64,000 bases of DNA. Origin: a virus (Duplodnaviria > Heunggongvirae > Uroviricota > Caudoviricetes). The stretch lies in the IMG/VR virus record IMGVR_UViG_3300042473_000506, one strand, 5' to 3'. Positions 27,426 to 34,677 of the stretch are shown here, in pieces. Within the stretch, counting starts at the first letter, position 1; each line of letters starts with the position of its first letter. The notes under the pieces were generated by a model. The model saw only the letters and a program-made list of their open reading frames with translations, was not told the origin of the DNA and searched no databases. The position numbers and the translations under genes were made by a program.

Positions 27426-30098
27426 TCAATCAAAGGAAAATAATTTGCCAAAGGTATTGTCTTGGGTAGTTGATTCTAAATCCCAATCCAGCACACCGAT
27501 GAGGTTGTCCAGTTTGTTGTTAATGATAGCAGTTTCCATTTCGCTGTGATCGAATGGCAGGTCTTGGAACCATTTAGGTAATCGCATCTCATCGACCGGA
27601 TAAGCAATGGATGTGTAGCCTAATGGATTGTCTTTAACTTTACAAACAATGACCTTCATGCCGTCAACAATGCCCATTGAGTATTTGTCACCGTTCATGC
27701 GTTTTAGCGTATTCCAGTTAATAGCAGCACGGACATGCCCTGGCATATTAGCCTTGCCTTGTTTAGCTTCCTTGGCTTGATACTCTGTGATGTTGTTAGC
27801 TCGTTTGGGACTACCCTTCTCCCAACCTGGACGGGCTTTGAACTCAGTCCGGAACGCACTGATCATTTCTAGAATTTCTTGTTCCTCTGCACCATTCAGT
27901 ACTCGAGTAAGAACTTCTTCTAAGAACTTTTGCATAAATTCGGGAGTATCACTACGCTTAAGATCTAGACCCATAGCTTTGATCTTACCTGGCTTACCGT
28001 CAGTGTCCTGTCTCTTACCATCTTTGTCGTAATACAATACTGCATAACGTTTCTTGGTAATGAACAGGCCTTTAACAGCAACAATTTCTCGCCCACCTTT
28101 GATAACCTCACCGCGTGTCTTTGGGCAATGAAATGCATCCAACATGAACTGCGGGAATGTTGCATTTACGTTTTCGGCAATCTGATCATACAACTGAATA
28201 ACAACATCTCTATCCCAAGGGATTAGCTTTTTGTTAATATCAGTCTTTAGCGTATTATAAGCTGAGAAGTAGCAACTGTCAGTATCACCGTAGATAATAC
28301 TCTTACCTACGTGATCAAACTCACCGGTAATCATTTCATTGACTTTGCCTGCCATATGCTTGGCAATCTGCCTGCCAACAAGTGTAGTGGACTGCCCAAT
28401 ACGCTTATCAAAGAATCTGCAACCAGGATTCAAAATAGCACCATACAAACTATTCAAGTTAATCTTCTTGACCAACTGTCGCTTGTCCCAATACTCTTCT
28501 TCGATCTTGTTACCTGCTTCGATAGCTGCCTTGAGCTTCTTCTGCATATCTTTACGTTCAGCATACCATCGCTTTAACAGTCCAGGAATAATGCCTTCAT
28601 GTTCATAGGTAAAGATAGTGCCGTTGGCGCTTAACATCCAAGGTTGATTACTGTCAAAGATTAACTTATATGCTTCAGCTGCACTCATAATATCACTTTG
28701 ATCGTTTTCCCAATCAACTGTAATTTCAAATGCACGGTCCTGTTGCATAACTGCTTCATACTCTAGGCTACCAAACATACCTTCCCAAGCCGCCGCAAAT
28801 GATTTTTTATGAACCATCATTTGTTCATCGATATGTTGATCTGTCCTGTCCTGACGTAACTGACCGATGATAGTTTCTGGACCCATGTTGAGCGCACGAA
28901 TAGCTGACGGATACAATGAGTTAATGTCAATAGATCCGATCCAGTCGTGGATACCTTTCTTGGGATATGCAACATAAGCACCTGCTGCCTGATTATTTGC
29001 GTCCTCGTCACGTTTGGCACGATTGGGCACAATGAGACCACGGTGGTGGGCTTCGTTTACAATAGCCTGTTCAGTTACAGCAACTGCACCCATTGTGGTC
29101 TGTAATAGCACCGTACATTCGTGTGCCAGTGTGTTAGCAAGATCGATAAACTTTAGTTTCTTATCCAGCTTGTCTAACAATGCGGTATCTTGTCTGTTGT
29201 ACTCAATGAACTTACGGAAGTCATTGTTATATAACTGATCAAGTGTACCTTCATAGTGAGTCTTGCTCTCGCCTACTTCCATCTCTCCAATGGCATCCAG
29301 TCGGTAAGTGTGTCGCTCTTCATATGTGTATTTGCGGTACAGCTCGAGACTGTCCAGATGAACACGACCAACCAGATCATAAGTAACAGCCGCTTTTCCA
29401 TATTTTTCGTACTCTCTCTTCTTGGGAAATTGACCCCACAGACAAAATCTACGAGTGTCTTCTTTACTCAGTGCTTTGATAACTCTGTTAACTGTGTAAG
29501 GGATATCATAGCCTTCACTGTTCCATCCACTGAGAATGTCAGCATCTTGAATGAGATCCAAAAACGCATCTAACATCTCTGCTTCAGTTTCAAACAGATG
29601 TGTATTAGGAAAGTCCTTAACTAACGCTGTTGCTTGCTCCATTGTCAGGGTCTTTGGAGGAACAGCAAAGCAGACCAGTGTGTCTAACCATTGTAGGTGA
29701 ACAGCAATCGATGTAATAGGCATGAAAGCATCCTCGGGGGTGCTATAACCTCTTTCAGGATCAAAGTCCACCTCAATGTCGAAGAACGCCACATTGAGTT
29801 TAGGCGGTTCGTGATTGAGATAGTTTTCTTCTAGGGTTTTGAATACAGTGTTGATGTCTGATTCATACAGTCTGTGGCTGCTGTGGATCCGTTGTTCTTT
29901 TTGAAAGTCTTTGTAGGACCTTGTGACAACTTTATTTAGATTTTCACCGTAAATTGATTTGTATTTTCCGCGTTGATCGGGATAATAAAATGTATATCTT
30001 GCAGGAAACTCCTGAAAGATTCTGCCTTTCTTTAGATCACGCTCAACGACATGCACAATGTCTTTGTCGCGATCCCACATGGCATCGACGTAGCTCAT
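27426..30098 (-). CDS. Family B DNA polymerase with 3'-5' exonuclease
   Basis: Exo motifs FDIE, GWNSEGYD, YNRQD; pol motifs DINSLYPS, KINLNSLYG, YGDTDS, KKRY, GLDLKRSD. Start moved to the ATG at 30098 (MSYVD), which follows an AAGGAG RBS. No intein. Confidence 0.97.
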   Translation of the reverse strand: MSYVDAMWDRDKDIVHVVERDLKKGRIFQEFPARYTFYYPDQRGKYKSIYGENLNKVVTRSYKDFQKEQRIHSSHRLYESDINTVFKTLEENYLNHEPPKLNVAFFDIEVDFDPERGYSTPEDAFMPITSIAVHLQWLDTLVCFAVPPKTLTMEQATALVKDFPNTHLFETEAEMLDAFLDLIQDADILSGWNSEGYDIPYTVNRVIKALSKEDTRRFCLWGQFPKKREYEKYGKAAVTYDLVGRVHLDSLELYRKYTYEERHTYRLDAIGEMEVGESKTHYEGTLDQLYNNDFRKFIEYNRQDTALLDKLDKKLKFIDLANTLAHECTVLLQTTMGAVAVTEQAIVNEAHHRGLIVPNRAKRDEDANNQAAGAYVAYPKKGIHDWIGSIDINSLYPSAIRALNMGPETIIGQLRQDRTDQHIDEQMMVHKKSFAAAWEGMFGSLEYEAVMQQDRAFEITVDWENDQSDIMSAAEAYKLIFDSNQPWMLSANGTIFTYEHEGIIPGLLKRWYAERKDMQKKLKAAIEAGNKIEEEYWDKRQLVKKINLNSLYGAILNPGCRFFDKRIGQSTTLVGRQIAKHMAGKVNEMITGEFDHVGKSIIYGDTDSCYFSAYNTLKTDINKKLIPWDRDVVIQLYDQIAENVNATFPQFMLDAFHCPKTRGEVIKGGREIVAVKGLFITKKRYAVLYYDKDGKRQDTDGKPGKIKAMGLDLKRSDTPEFMQKFLEEVLTRVLNGAEEQEILEMISAFRTEFKARPGWEKGSPKRANNITEYQAKEAKQGKANMPGHVRAAINWNTLKRMNGDKYSMGIVDGMKVIVCKVKDNPLGYTSIAYPVDEMRLPKWFQDLPFDHSEMETAIINNKLDNLIGVLDWDLESTTQDNTFGKLFSFD

Positions 30099-30167
30099 AT
30101 AGTTCTCCTTACCGCTTATGGCCGGCAACCGTTCTTGTGATCATTTATAGCTGATCAAACTTTTCTC

Positions 30168-30467
30168 TTATATATTTAACAATCTAATATAGCCGATGAC
30201 GTCTATAGTGACTAACAGTAGGTAGTTGGCTACCATACCTGTGCTCTTTCGAGTCCATGATGCCCATGCAAAAATTGCACATTGCAAAATAAATATCGGA
30301 TACAGATAGAAAAACAGCGGATCAGTTGCACCTGCTGCCAATGTCAGAGAGCAGCCTAAACTCATTAACCATGCTGAAATTTCTAACGAAAATCGGACAG
30401 GCCATTCTCGATAGTCATTCCTGGCCCAGTTGTACACGTTTCCAAGTACAGTTGTAAGTCTAGTCAT
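30168..30467 (-). CDS. Small membrane protein (about 3 TM segments)
   Basis: Three hydrophobic stretches in 99 aa. Confidence 0.65.
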   Translation of the reverse strand: MTRLTTVLGNVYNWARNDYREWPVRFSLEISAWLMSLGCSLTLAAGATDPLFFYLYPIFILQCAIFAWASWTRKSTGMVANYLLLVTIDVIGYIRLLNI

Positions 30468-30820
30468 TAATCTGCCTGTCTTGTAATAAAATTTACCCTA
30501 ATTTTTTTAGGATTAAAATATTTTGTTACTACATTCTGTGCAGTTAGCAAATCAAACTCTTTACAACTAAAAATATCAAAGTATGCAGTTCCGTCGAGTT
30601 CCATAAAATGACCACAAATATTACTTGTAGTTATTAGCTGCATTAAGCTGTAACCTTGTTTTGAATCTCCAGGTAACAAATATTCGATTATAGGTTCTCC
30701 GTACGCGACCATGTCGATCTTGTCAACAAGGTCTTTTACAAAATTATAAATGTTATCTTTGCAGTGAATTTGTTCACAACCACTACAATCTAACATTAAA
30801 TGATATCCCCAGTGGCTCAT
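30467..30820 (-). CDS. speD: Pyruvoyl-dependent S-adenosylmethionine decarboxylase family protein (SpeD/SpeH type)
   Basis: GYHLMLDC, GYSLMQLITT-SNICGHF (autocleavage Ser), FDIFSCKEF. Confidence 0.82.
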   Translation of the reverse strand: MSHWGYHLMLDCSGCEQIHCKDNIYNFVKDLVDKIDMVAYGEPIIEYLLPGDSKQGYSLMQLITTSNICGHFMELDGTAYFDIFSCKEFDLLTAQNVVTKYFNPKKIRVNFITRQAD

Positions 30821-31089
30821 TAGTCTTCACGACGATTAGCGTGACCTGCAATATCGACAATAGTTTCAAGATCGTCGAATTCACGGAACACTTGATCCCA
30901 TTGATCTTTCTGTGCAATTTTGATTGCTTTGCGAATAACACTAGGTTTTACCTCTAGTTCTTCTGCCACTGCTTTGATAGTTTCATTCAAACCTTCAGTG
31001 AGGTCTTGAATTTCCTGCATAACAGTCATACCTTCGGATACGATCTGTTTGATTTTTGCCTGTTCTGGTGCGCCAAATGCTTTTCCCAT
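30820..31089 (-). CDS. Small helical dsDNA-binding protein (T4 DsbA/GapR-like)
   Basis: EIQDLTEGLNETIKAVAEELEVKPSVIRKAIKIA: coiled-coil plus HTH-like pattern. Confidence 0.55.
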   Translation of the reverse strand: MGKAFGAPEQAKIKQIVSEGMTVMQEIQDLTEGLNETIKAVAEELEVKPSVIRKAIKIAQKDQWDQVFREFDDLETIVDIAGHANRRED

Positions 31090-31138: not shown

Positions 31139-31756
31139 ACTTTTTTCTGTGTATTCTGCCCTAGTCCAACCAAGAAGAAAGTTTGCTTTCCAATCATTTT
31201 GTGCAAAGCCAGTAAGGTTTTTCCATTGATCTCTGTGTGCTAGAACCTGTCGAGATGCATCACGCCAGTCAGTGTGTCGTACCTTAAAATCAAACATCTG
31301 CATAGATTTTAGGAATGTGTCGTAGTCGTAGTTGTCATACTCGACGTGCAGTACTTCATAGATATTACCAGCGTCATCTACTGCATCTAATGCAAAATCA
31401 AATCCCCATTTCTGTGGAGTTTTCAATAACCACTCTGCCTCGGGAATATCCTTTTTTATTTTTCTTAGTTGATGTTCTGCGTAGTCCTCGTATCTGCAAC
31501 GATGCAGGATCAATGAGTGATCTAGTATTAGACCTATATCGTTATATTCTAGAGCAAACCAAGGTTCTTGCCAGCAGCGATGATTAAGTATAGGATGGTC
31601 TATAGGATGGTGCATCATCCCGTAATATTTCTGTTCTGCTTGATTTAATTCAAATCCGTCTTTGTCATAGAATTTAAAATCTTCTGCAACAACATTGTAG
31701 ATGGGCTCACTACAGACAGGATTTGATACTACCGGTACATCAAATCTTTTAAACAT
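31127..31756 (-). CDS. Hypothetical protein
   Basis: 209-aa intact ORF. Confidence 0.7.
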   Translation of the reverse strand: MFKRFDVPVVSNPVCSEPIYNVVAEDFKFYDKDGFELNQAEQKYYGMMHHPIDHPILNHRCWQEPWFALEYNDIGLILDHSLILHRCRYEDYAEHQLRKIKKDIPEAEWLLKTPQKWGFDFALDAVDDAGNIYEVLHVEYDNYDYDTFLKSMQMFDFKVRHTDWRDASRQVLAHRDQWKNLTGFAQNDWKANFLLGWTRAEYTEKSLTL

Positions 31757-31759
31757 GTT

Positions 31760-31993
31760 TTATTTTTTTGTGGGCTGCTTTGCATCGTAGTAGGCTGCTA
31801 TAGCCATACGATCTTTCTTTTCTGGATCTTTGTTTTTAAATTGACGATATTGATTTGGGTCAGCAGTTTGAAAACGTTGTTTCCAATAGTCAATAGGCAT
31901 ATCGGGCCTTAGTTTAGGCTGTGGTCCGACTGGCTTAGTTTGTTGAGCAGGCTCCTCTGTCGGTGCCACCGGTTCCTGCTCAATTACTTTTTT
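31760..31993 (-). CDS. -1 frame extension of the 897-aa polyprotein (or an independent 69-aa ORF from the GTG at 31969)
   Basis: The frame is open upstream through the stop of the 31984 gene: KKVIEQEPVAPTEEPAQQ...YYDAKQPTKK. Confidence 0.6.
   Translation of the reverse strand, partial: KKVIEQEPVAPTEEPAQQTKPVGPQPKLRPDMPIDYWKQRFQTADPNQYRQFKNKDPEKKDRMAIAAYYDAKQPTKK
31943..31993 (-). promoter_or_regulatory. Candidate programmed -1 ribosomal frameshift signal
   Basis: In-phase A_AAA_AAG (31993-31987), then TAA, then a 9-bp stem TTGAGCAGG/CCTGCTCAA. Confidence 0.6.
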
Positions 31994-34677
31994 GATTTCT
32001 TCTTTTCAGGAAGACCTTTGTGCTTAGTTGATGCAAAGTCTTTGGCATCTTTCTTGCCCATATCCTTGGCTACTTTGGCAACTTCTTTACTGGCAGGCTT
32101 TTCACCTTTTTGTGCAGCATGAACCATGCCCATAAACTTTTGTTGCTGCTTGCTTACTGCTTTTTCACTCAGGACCTGTTGCAATGAGTGGGCAAGACTT
32201 TCCATATATACATCAACTTCGGATACTGACTGTTCCATACTTCTCAACTCACCAAGTGTGTCGGAAACAAAGTCTTCATCATAGCTGATCAAATATCTTG
32301 CCTCCTTTGGCGACATGTTTAATTCTTTGACCAGCACCATGCCTATTGCGTTGATCAATTCATTTTCTTGTGCAGGATCGTATTTGATTCCACGATCTGA
32401 TAGAATTTTAGCAACTTGATAACTTGTGCGATCTTCCGGTGCTTCCGCTACACCTTGCTCACTCTCGCCTATTTCAAGTTCGCCGCGACTAGCCATTCGG
32501 TTTTGTAATTTATCCAGATTACCCGACTGCAACTGACTATCAAATTGTGGTAGCATTTGAGCAAGGGTATCAGGATCCATTTCAATATCAAATTGATTTG
32601 ATAGTATCTGTTGCCAATTTAGTATTCTTCTTTTTTCTGGTGTTCCTATAGGAGCCATGACTACTGCTTTTAGATATGCCATTGCTAAATGTGTTTTGTT
32701 TGCTCCAGAGCCTTCCGCCACACCTTGCTCAGGACTATGTCTCAGATTGGCTATGTAACCATTGGGACCAGTCCATTGATCTTTATAGTCTTGCCATTCG
32801 TTCTGACTCCATGCTATAGGGAACATTTGCCAGGCCCACATTCCATGGGTATTAAACTCGCTAGAAAATTCCTGTATGTCTGCCAGTGTAATACCCGAGG
32901 TCTTGGTCTGTTTAGCAACATCAATCAACCAGTGCGCCATGGTTTCGCCACCGTCTTCGAATTCGCTTAATTTTTTTAATTTATTAAATCTATCTGCACC
33001 TTGCTTGGCAAACTCACGGCAAAGATCTTCAAGCCATTTTATAAATTCCTGACCAAATTTGGCCAATGCAGTCTCGGGGTCGCTGCCTGTTCTTGCAGTG
33101 AGGGACTTATTCAAATTATCTACACCTTGCCTGGCACCAGCACCGCCTGTGATCTGTCCCATCATGCTGTCAAATCTCTCATCGCCTGTTGCCTCCGCCA
33201 CACCTTGCTTTTTATTTCGCAACAGGCCCACCTGTTTTAGTTTTGGGTCCATGAAGTAATAAACATTCCCGTCAGCACCCACAGCATGACTTTTACTTGC
33301 AGTGTATCCAGTTCTTAATTCATCAGGAGTTGCAGGTCTTACTTGTTTCACTGATTCACGCAAATCGCCTTCTTCAGGGTCTTGGCCAGTTTTTACAAAA
33401 TGTTCAAGTTCTTCAAGTGAATAACCAACTTGATCGGCTAGGTTTTGTTTGTCTTCTGGCGACATTCTGCGCCATCCACTTCTTATTGTTTGTAGTTGTA
33501 GGGACAACTCGTGGCGTCTGGTCATTTCGTTACCAGCATTAGTTACTGGACCGTTTAAAATGTTTCTGATTTCTGAAGTATAGTATGCGTCTGCTTTACC
33601 TGCCATTTGACTACCGTACTGTTGACCTAATGTTTTCCCACCAAACTTTTTGACTTGTTGTGCGCTTAATACTTTGGCAAGATGCGTAAAATCTTTTCCG
33701 TTTCTTATTGCGGCTACTAGTTTTTCTTCGGCCGCTTCAATCCATTCTTGGAATTCAGGATCTGCTTGAACGGCCAAGTTGTCTACTTCTTGATTATAGA
33801 AGTCAATTGATTGTTGGTGCCCATCTGTACCTGCGGCATTAGCTGGCATGTTTACACTTGAGCTACCAAATGCCTCCGCCACACCTTGCTTTGGCAAATC
33901 ACTTAATTGATCCGGAATATAGTCTTCATCGTAACTTAATAAGTAACGAATTTGTTTTGAACTCATTCCTGCTTTCTTCATGTATTGAGCCATCAATCCG
34001 ATGAGTTCATCTTCTTTATCTGGGCTGTAGGTAATGCCGTCTTGAGCCATTTGCTGTCCAATGGACAACTTAGTTTGATCCGCTGGGATACTCAAATACT
34101 GGTCGCCTGGCATACTGGCTCCACCTTCCTCTACACCTTGCTGCTCTGCTTTTGCTTTGGCCTCATCTCTAGTACGACTATAACCTTGGGCTATTGCTAG
34201 TTGTACTTGATTAGGGTAGACAGACGTTTTGAACATTTTACCATCTTTAACAACATACCAGTCTGTTGGATCTAAGTCGTGTCGTTCATCATCGCCGCGA
34301 TTGAATGCACCACCTACTCCACGAAATGGCATGCCTGCTTCTGCTAACTTTGATTTTAGTTGATCAATTTTTGTGCGTAGAGATTCCATATAGGGCTTTT
34401 TATGTTTTGCAGCGCCCTGCTTTTGTTCTTTTTTCTTATCCTTGTGTGCGCCTGCACCACTGGACTTGGCATTCTTAGCAACAAAATTACGGGGAGTAGT
34501 TGCAGGAACTTTGTCTTTACCTGCTTCTTGTGCCAAGATATTTCCGCGCTTTTGGACTTTGCCTAACGAGCTCGGTGCTGTAGCAACACTACCTGAACCG
34601 GTTGCACCTGCTGTCATTGACTCTAATGTATAGCGAGTTTCGTTATTGCTTTTTGATTTTTTAAATTCGTTGTTCAT
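31984..34677 (-). CDS. Modular head-internal-like polyprotein with QGVAE linkers
   Basis: Five QGV(A/E)E linkers plus LAE/LRE/VSE/LSE junctions separate unrelated 75-230-aa modules; basic C-terminal module KAVSKQQQKFMGMVHA...FASTKHKGLPEK. Confidence 0.75.
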   Translation of the reverse strand: MNNEFKKSKSNNETRYTLESMTAGATGSGSVATAPSSLGKVQKRGNILAQEAGKDKVPATTPRNFVAKNAKSSGAGAHKDKKKEQKQGAAKHKKPYMESLRTKIDQLKSKLAEAGMPFRGVGGAFNRGDDERHDLDPTDWYVVKDGKMFKTSVYPNQVQLAIAQGYSRTRDEAKAKAEQQGVEEGGASMPGDQYLSIPADQTKLSIGQQMAQDGITYSPDKEDELIGLMAQYMKKAGMSSKQIRYLLSYDEDYIPDQLSDLPKQGVAEAFGSSSVNMPANAAGTDGHQQSIDFYNQEVDNLAVQADPEFQEWIEAAEEKLVAAIRNGKDFTHLAKVLSAQQVKKFGGKTLGQQYGSQMAGKADAYYTSEIRNILNGPVTNAGNEMTRRHELSLQLQTIRSGWRRMSPEDKQNLADQVGYSLEELEHFVKTGQDPEEGDLRESVKQVRPATPDELRTGYTASKSHAVGADGNVYYFMDPKLKQVGLLRNKKQGVAEATGDERFDSMMGQITGGAGARQGVDNLNKSLTARTGSDPETALAKFGQEFIKWLEDLCREFAKQGADRFNKLKKLSEFEDGGETMAHWLIDVAKQTKTSGITLADIQEFSSEFNTHGMWAWQMFPIAWSQNEWQDYKDQWTGPNGYIANLRHSPEQGVAEGSGANKTHLAMAYLKAVVMAPIGTPEKRRILNWQQILSNQFDIEMDPDTLAQMLPQFDSQLQSGNLDKLQNRMASRGELEIGESEQGVAEAPEDRTSYQVAKILSDRGIKYDPAQENELINAIGMVLVKELNMSPKEARYLISYDEDFVSDTLGELRSMEQSVSEVDVYMESLAHSLQQVLSEKAVSKQQQKFMGMVHAAQKGEKPASKEVAKVAKDMGKKDAKDFASTKHKGLPEKKKSKK

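Follow-up and report, generated by a model that had tools for sequence, protein, structure and literature searches.

The closest described counterparts of the site analysed here lie in the dnaX gene of E. coli, where a -1 frameshift reportedly gives rise to the tau and gamma proteins (Tsuchihashi and Kornberg 1990; Flower and McHenry 1990; Larsen et al. 1994), and in elements of the IS3 family (IS911, IS150), where it yields OrfAB beside OrfA. We describe a putative site of the same type at the end of a large modular gene in a 64,000-nt stretch of viral DNA (Caudoviricetes; IMG/VR record IMGVR_UViG_3300042473_000506), the whole of which is called the window below. As in dnaX, an identical in-phase A_AAA_AAG is followed a few nucleotides downstream by a stable stem-loop in the position of the stimulator. 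Unlike dnaX, which has an upstream Shine-Dalgarno-like enhancer, the phage site has none that is conserved; the dnaX shift leads to early termination, whereas the phage shift would bypass an adjacent stop and lengthen the protein, and the gene families are unrelated. The IS3 elements likewise combine A_AAA_AAG with a downstream structure to fuse overlapping frames, with the zero-frame stop nearby; the phage gene, however, is no transposase or mobile element, its stop adjoins the heptamer, and the domain that would be added is small and terminal rather than catalytic.

Looser parallels exist among phages and eukaryotic viruses. Gene 10A/10B of phages T7 and T3 undergoes a capsid frameshift, and in the Listeria phages A118 and PSA capsid and tail proteins receive C-terminal extensions by frameshifting. 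The likeness to these lies in a -1 shift within the last codons that gives a minor extended isoform beside a major short one, but the slippery sequences and proteins are others, and in the window a multi-module polyprotein would gain an ancestral C-terminus. The lambda tail assembly chaperone gpG/gpGT is similar in that a conserved phage -1 shift fixes the ratio of short to long product; it differs in its heptamer (G_GGA_AAG), in having no hairpin, and in gene position and function, and is not homologous. Retroviral gag/gag-pol and coronavirus ORF1a/1ab also shift by -1 at the end of a polyprotein and produce nested products in a set ratio, and in one relative of the phage gene (L087) the -1 part holds further modules (287 aa); these are, however, eukaryotic RNA viruses with pseudoknot stimulators and added enzymes, and the analogy is one of logic only.

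Lake-water metagenomes contain this DNA, and its source, an uncultured lake-water jumbo phage, very probably makes two versions of a large modular protein. Phage-type genes in the window encode a family-B DNA polymerase (27426-30128), a ClpB-like ATPase and an Mtd_N fibre protein, and the ORFs also include two of 1606 aa and 2206 aa. The polymerase (PolB) places this phage near two jumbo myoviruses, each of 470-490 kb: its closest relatives are the enzymes of Sinorhizobium phage Phosso, at 50%, and of Agrobacterium phage Atu_ph07, at 46%. Among isolated phages, neither a near-identity DNA search with the locus nor tblastn with the extension described below returned a match. Three DNA runs, whose lake samples differ and date from 2020 and 2024, gave contigs identical to the window over 31700-32400 with no indel; their mean word depths are about 5, 52 and 15. 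All sampled words were present in 22 runs.

On the minus strand, the end of the gene reads ...AAG AAA TCA AAA AAG TAA TTGAGCAGG-(23 nt)-CCTGCTCAA. The features of the locus, in window coordinates, are the following.

34677-31984, minus strand: zero-frame polyprotein ORF (P0001), 897 aa.
32218-34140, minus strand: six Q(G/S)V(A/E/S)E motifs at polyprotein residues 180, 264, 491, 651, 741 and 816, marking its module borders.
31996-32157, minus strand: DUF3008-like last module of the polyprotein, residues 840-893.
31993-31987, minus strand: slippery heptamer A_AAA_AAG in X_XXY_YYZ phase, with AAA AAG as the last two sense codons.
31986-31984, minus strand: zero-frame TAA stop, adjoining the heptamer and ending the short isoform.
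31943..31983, minus strand: hairpin with a 9-bp stem (5' arm TTGAGCAGG, 31983-31975; 3' arm CCTGCTCAA, 31951-31943) and a 23-nt loop (31974-31952).
31916..31987, minus strand: -1 linker, extension residues 1-24 (VIEQEPVAPTEEPAQQTKPVGPQP), rich in Pro, Ala, Glu and Gln and encoding the hairpin.
31763..31915, minus strand: -1 C-terminal domain, extension residues 25-75 (KLRPDMPIDYWKQRFQ...QFKNK...RMAIAAYYDAKQPTKK), small, basic and predicted to be helical.
Down to the TAA at 31762-31760, minus strand: complete -1 extension (P0002), 75 codons, VIEQEPVAP...YYDAKQPTKK.
31762-31760, minus strand: -1 frame TAA stop, which would end the 972-aa long isoform.
Across the junction: predicted trans-frame tryptic peptide (K)VIEQEPVAPTEEPAQQTK, preceded by ...SKK.

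A slip at the heptamer would enter the -1 frame by re-reading the G at 31987 and take the product from 897 aa to 972 aa; the ATG of the next gene lies at 31756. The anatomy given in the original prediction is borne out: the heptamer, read directly in the sequence, stands in the correct phase as the final two sense codons, both arms of a stem starting 3 nt after it are seen, and the -1 frame is open for about 75 codons to 31760. The prediction erred in taking a GTG (31969) for the sole start of the downstream ORF, which also has an in-frame ATG at 31900-31898 with AAGG 6 nt upstream. Among window ORFs of at least 100 codons, this ORF alone combines an in-phase A_AAA_AAG near its end with a -1 extension of at least 25 codons. 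An AAATTTT (in-phase A_AAT_TTT) that lies 6 codons before the stop of a 117-aa ORF (30467-30820; region 30467-30826, minus strand) was rejected as a second candidate; the -1 frame there is simply the next gene, which has its own ATG, and the pattern at this ordinary gene overlap is most likely due to chance.

No Shine-Dalgarno-like enhancer is present about 10 nt 5' of the heptamer, where the window has GAAAAGAAGAAATC upstream and neither GGAG nor AGGA; among relatives, GAGGA is found 6 nt upstream in the L003/L101 group only, and elsewhere it is not conserved. A search of 31700-32200 with Rfam cmscan (E up to 10) returned no family at the heptamer or hairpin, and the single hit to a frameshift family, mycoplasma_FSE at 31747-31835 (22.6 bits against a gathering score of 88), was discarded as noise.

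We looked for a stable RNA structure about 5-9 nt 3' of the heptamer and judged one to be present, its stem beginning 3 nt downstream. The window hairpin has a folding energy of -20.9 kcal/mol (z -2.57), which 2 of 200 shuffled sequences equalled in stability, and the mean hairpin z over all 34 IMG/VR variants of the -1 arrangement is -2.6. For all variants with a GAGCAGG arm, folding predicts a stem-loop of -16 to -25 kcal/mol; its distance from the heptamer is 2-6 nt, in most cases 3-6 nt. The core AGCAGG/CCTGCT is invariant in 24 of 24 variants, and the third codon positions of the arms (GAG CAG ... CCT GCT) are fixed in the same 24; synonymous sites at invariant domain residues of these sequences are free to vary (for one Ala, GCT 8, GCA 11, GCC 4 and GCG 1). 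The distance from 5' to 3' arm is 30, 42 or 48 nt, and the loops differ in both length and sequence. Among 16 sequences of equal spacing, 81.8% of cells pair; sliding the 3' partners by 1-3 columns lowers this share to 24-41%.

The original prediction had looked to homologues for a conserved heptamer, stop and hairpin with compensatory changes in the stem. Heptamer and stop are kept across the -1 relatives, and the hairpin arms across those that carry GAGCAGG (one sub-group, the A9 sub-group described below, has no GAGCAGG hairpin), but the compensatory part came out weak: two of 12 pairs change on both sides (GC/UA and CG/GC), and 29 of 500 shuffles reach the observed covariation score. From conservation and co-occurrence with the heptamer, and not from compensatory changes, we conclude that the stem appears to be under RNA-level selection and is correctly placed for a stimulator. 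Its invariance could be explained in part by codon or peptide constraint on EQE and PAQ.

We sought relatives in IMG/VR and in JGI/ENA metagenome contigs with polyprotein, extension and extension-domain alignments, and classed the loci by frame. (A scan with a 20-nt motif gave about 20 further matches, which were discarded as chance; they are ordinary in-frame K-I/V-x-E-Q-E/D coding with no upstream ORF.) Two junction types were found. Both represent one and the same locus, since each has the conserved 142-aa gene upstream and the conserved ~100-aa leader at the N-terminus of the polyprotein. In both, the junction falls just after a conserved (D/E)xY(M/F)ESL helix. No +1 arrangement was seen among 78 metagenome loci and 90 classified loci (IMG/VR plus the window).

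The -1 type comprises 34 unique junctions in IMG/VR and 16 in metagenomes (about 50 in total), every one of which has an in-phase A_AAA_AAG (the majority) or A_AAA_AAA. TAA adjoins the heptamer in nearly all variants, the exceptions being L118 (TCC TAG) and L006/L131 (AAA TAG). The polyprotein tail before the site differs by lineage (..KHKGLPEKKKSKK, ..EELAKK, ..AWKAKNKSKK, ..KGYKSHKAKK, ..LESKK), and despite these differing protein tails the nucleotides AAAAAAG TAA GTGAGCAGGA are kept. In loci that share modules and the N-terminal leader with the polyprotein (L002/L003 and others), A_AAA_AAG TAA is retained and the homologue of the extension lies in the -1 frame. Variants whose extensions have diverged to 56-75% amino-acid identity still have the A-run, the stop and an open, conserved -1 frame. 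In L123, L130, L147 and L112, no more than 3 nt of open -1 frame precede the heptamer, so the frame change must occur on the heptamer itself.

In the second type (about 30 IMG/VR and 36 metagenome loci, among them L004, L007, L008, L083, L114, L117, L119-L122, L136 and L139-L142), the polyprotein continues in frame into the same domain, which forms its C-terminus. At these junctions there is no A-run or heptamer, no stop, no GAGCAGG arm and no hairpin. Taken together, the -1 junctions and the in-frame orthologues strongly support the central claim of the original prediction, that a dnaX-type -1 frameshift would give a short and a C-terminally extended isoform.

Further observations were made among the relatives. 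The A9 sub-group (L006/L131, L115:2968-3048, L116:1837-1917, L153:2944-3024, L266 and L267) reads TTA AAA AAA AAG TAA GTGAG... at the same junction and has neither the GAGCAGG hairpin nor the Pro/Ala linker; it may represent a switch to transcriptional slippage within one gene family. In L087:2926-3786, L088:691-1095, L090:2926-3318, L115:2986-3321 and L118:2941-3324, the -1 frame runs past the domain into additional modules of up to 287 aa (L087), which end in a conserved ...ENFADGK...SLRKTAKQGGRKGQLAHW(L/M)ANMKAGRAKK. In the one metatranscriptome run, X23, from a wetland, an assembled contig of a relative aligns to 31864-31964 with 2 differences; at its loose end stands AAAAA TAA GTGAGCAGGAC, in keeping with an A_AAA_AAA TAA cassette. 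The cassette is therefore present in an RNA library from a different habitat, although these are contigs only, which do not by themselves prove transcription and give no measure of slippage, strand or expression level in this phage.

The domain carried by the extension has the consensus ..DxW..xF..ADPN.YHQFKNKTPEKK.QMA.AA.Y.A..P.KK and occurs once within the window. AlphaFold2 (36 sequences) predicts residues 1-30 of the extension to be disordered (pLDDT about 51) and places helices at residues 32-41 and 55-70 (pLDDT 82-90); the Pro/Ala/Glu/Gln linker is confined to loci of the frameshift type. A search with the domain profile against 1.84 billion representatives identified 1888 proteins at E <= 0.001, of which 227 reach E <= 1e-10. 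In these proteins, which range from 70 to 997 aa, the domain is nearly always at the extreme C-terminus; the 75-codon ORF is thus no orphan gene, but the normal C-terminus of the family moved into the -1 frame. No family in Pfam or PHROGs matched the extension, a fold search of the PDB with its model found nothing at E <= 0.001, and the fold matches in the ESM atlas were viral hypothetical and DUF5824-type proteins only, with no functional lead. We regard the ~50-aa terminal domain as a candidate new domain family. In public gene calls (P0019, P0103, P0105 and P0078) the extension is annotated as an independent small ORF that starts at an internal Met or at an upstream alternative start overlapping the polyprotein end, and the fusion is missed.

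The zero-frame polyprotein itself begins with the conserved leader of ~100 aa, has a DUF7230-like stretch near the N-terminus and a variable middle, and ends with a DUF3008-like module. The C-terminal module scores 18.1 bits against DUF3008 (PF11450), under the Pfam gathering cut-off of 24, and the same region matches PHROG families at 7e-24. By tblastn it is ~70% identical to small proteins of T4-like cyanophages (cyanomyovirus), and it is the only part of the locus with a match in cyanophages; it is likely, on these alignments, to be a divergent DUF3008 member. The matching protein of Synechococcus phage S-SCSM1 is annotated as 'virion protein'.

T4-type internal head proteins, which the prohead protease processes, are marked by (L/I/V)-x-E cleavage motifs repeated at module borders, a leader that targets them to the capsid, and presence in virions. 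A comparison with them draws on the six Q(G/S)V(A/E/S)E motifs, the conserved N-terminal leader and the position of PolB near Atu_ph07 and Phosso. The motifs may be prohead-protease sites, and the polyprotein may be head-internal. In the in-frame relatives, the last such motif stands directly before the (D/E)xYMESL helix and the terminal domain (e.g. L004 ...EQGVAEGDAYMESL...). Polyvalent proteins of phages and conjugative elements are mosaic, and their processing and packaging have been proposed (Iyer et al. 2017, PMC5512222). They resemble the present protein in being large, multi-module phage proteins with modules shuffled between relatives, but that paper mentions no frameshifting, and no zincin-like MPTase or other polyvalent-protein hallmark domain was detected in the 897-aa protein.

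We consider the whole explanation, in which a modular polyprotein gene of a jumbo phage ends in a dnaX/IS3-type -1 ribosomal frameshift, to be highly probable. That the two frames are expressed as one product in some form is more probable still, and that the ribosome is what shifts by -1 is quite probable. We infer a slip of such efficiency that most ribosomes would read ...TCA AAA AAG, reach TAA and release the 897-aa protein, whereas some would be held by the hairpin 3 nt downstream; a slowly decoded stop next to the heptamer perhaps adds to the delay. In these delayed ribosomes, the Lys-tRNAs would move their pairing from A AAA AAG to AAA AAA, and translation would go on with GTA ATT GAG..., adding a flexible linker of ~24 residues (Pro/Ala/Glu/Gln) and a helical, basic domain of ~50 residues to give 972 aa. 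For the A_AAA_AAG variants, this predicts a host whose sole tRNA-Lys is tRNA-Lys(UUU). The added domain is the ancestral, conserved C-terminus of the polyprotein family; since it is ancestral and in frame in many orthologues, the frameshift would set the fraction of molecules that bear it. In some relatives, frameshifting would also govern up to about 290 aa of downstream modules. As to the role of the domain, our guess, by analogy with T7 10B and lambda gpGT, is anchoring or packaging, for which fewer copies would be needed than of the cargo part.

Slippage by RNA polymerase, in which some transcripts would gain one A (A6 to A7) and so carry the extension in frame, is very improbable as the explanation for the window. 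Such slippage is known for Thermus dnaX and some IS elements, and the A9 relatives, which have no GAGCAGG hairpin, fit it; a second mechanism may operate in the polyprotein family, and in these relatives slippage by the polymerase is a serious candidate. Bacterial RNA polymerase, however, is not known to slip efficiently on runs of fewer than about 8-9 A's, and the window has six only, below the ~9-A run of transcriptional-slippage sites. The conserved hairpin 3-6 nt downstream and the strict phase of the heptamer are, moreover, ribosomal signatures for which polymerase slippage has no need.

It is very unlikely that the 31760 ORF is a separate small gene, initiated at ATG 31900 or GTG 31969, beside which the heptamer is a coincidence. 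An in-frame ATG with AAGG 6 nt upstream is indeed present, and gene callers make separate small proteins of such ORFs from this Met (P0103, P0105, P0078). The GTG start raised as an alternative in the original prediction is nevertheless largely excluded, as GTG 31969 is not conserved in relatives. The ATG fares little better: the Met of PDMPIDYW is Val in L128, L130, L132 and L134, where no in-frame ATG, GTG or TTG precedes the domain, and because the same Met also lies inside in-frame fusions (L007, L139-L142), it is a residue of the domain and not a start signal. Between heptamer and Met lie 24-35 codons that every variant keeps free of stops and conserved as peptide, and about 50 variants show no change in the heptamer, the stop or the relation of the frames. 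Separate initiation cannot explain the relatives that have no start codon, or those in which the -1 frame opens 3 nt before the heptamer. In this particular phage, ATG 31900 with its AAGG could add some independent initiation.

The remaining alternative, an artefact or decaying gene, be it a homopolymer miscall (a true A7 and a plain 972-aa gene, one extra A being enough to fuse both frames, as the original prediction had allowed) or a recent inactivating frameshift, is close to refuted: contigs of the three DNA runs of different samples and years agree without an indel, and 22 runs contain all sampled words. The diverged relatives are the stronger argument, because some of the matching lake samples are possibly the window's own source: in about 50 of these variants the A-run and the stop persist and the -1 frame is open and conserved, where a pseudogene tail would gather stops.

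With a ribosomal -1 frameshift as the preferred reading of the window, we examined how the junction states are distributed in the family. On a tree of the N-terminal leader, which is short and poorly resolved, the three states (in-frame, -1 and A9) are interspersed, with 10 changes, at least 4-5 of which are forced by well-supported branches. The frameshift locus L100 and the in-frame locus L004 have identical leaders, and L100/L003 share middle modules with L004 and differ from it in the C-terminal cassette. This pattern suggests exchange of the C-terminal cassette by recombination, of recent date in the case of L100/L003 and L004, in line with the shuffling of modules in the polyprotein middle among relatives.

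A broader proposal, which we put forward tentatively and regard as possible rather than probable, is that this lineage of freshwater jumbo phages uses recoding as a switch, exchangeable between phages, for the C-terminal anchor domain of its cargo polyprotein. The domain would be always attached in one state, attached to a ribosomally determined fraction of molecules in another, and possibly governed by polymerase slippage in the A9 state; the states would be swapped by recombination between phages that are otherwise near-identical, and in some phages the frameshift would also dose ~290 aa of cargo modules. If true, this switch would be a phage counterpart of gag/gag-pol dosing.

Full-text literature searches found no earlier description of this site or family. 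The mechanism is a known one, of the dnaX/IS3 type, and the gene context is new: here frameshifting governs the making of the C-terminal domain of a jumbo-phage polyprotein. Programmed frameshifting in phages thereby reaches past tail chaperones and capsid decoration into a large modular jumbo-phage polyprotein. Because gene callers split the gene into a big gene and an orphan small ORF, the conserved C-terminal domain goes unrecognised. The family also provides natural controls at a single point of one protein, where ~50 frameshift variants stand beside as many in-frame orthologues and a few A9 variants, and this set is ready data for how frameshift cassettes arise, are tuned and are exchanged. 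Finally, a frameshift at this position implies that fewer copies of the C-terminal domain are needed than of the remainder of the protein, and this lower need is a clue to the role of the domain in assembly of the phage particle or in delivery of its cargo.
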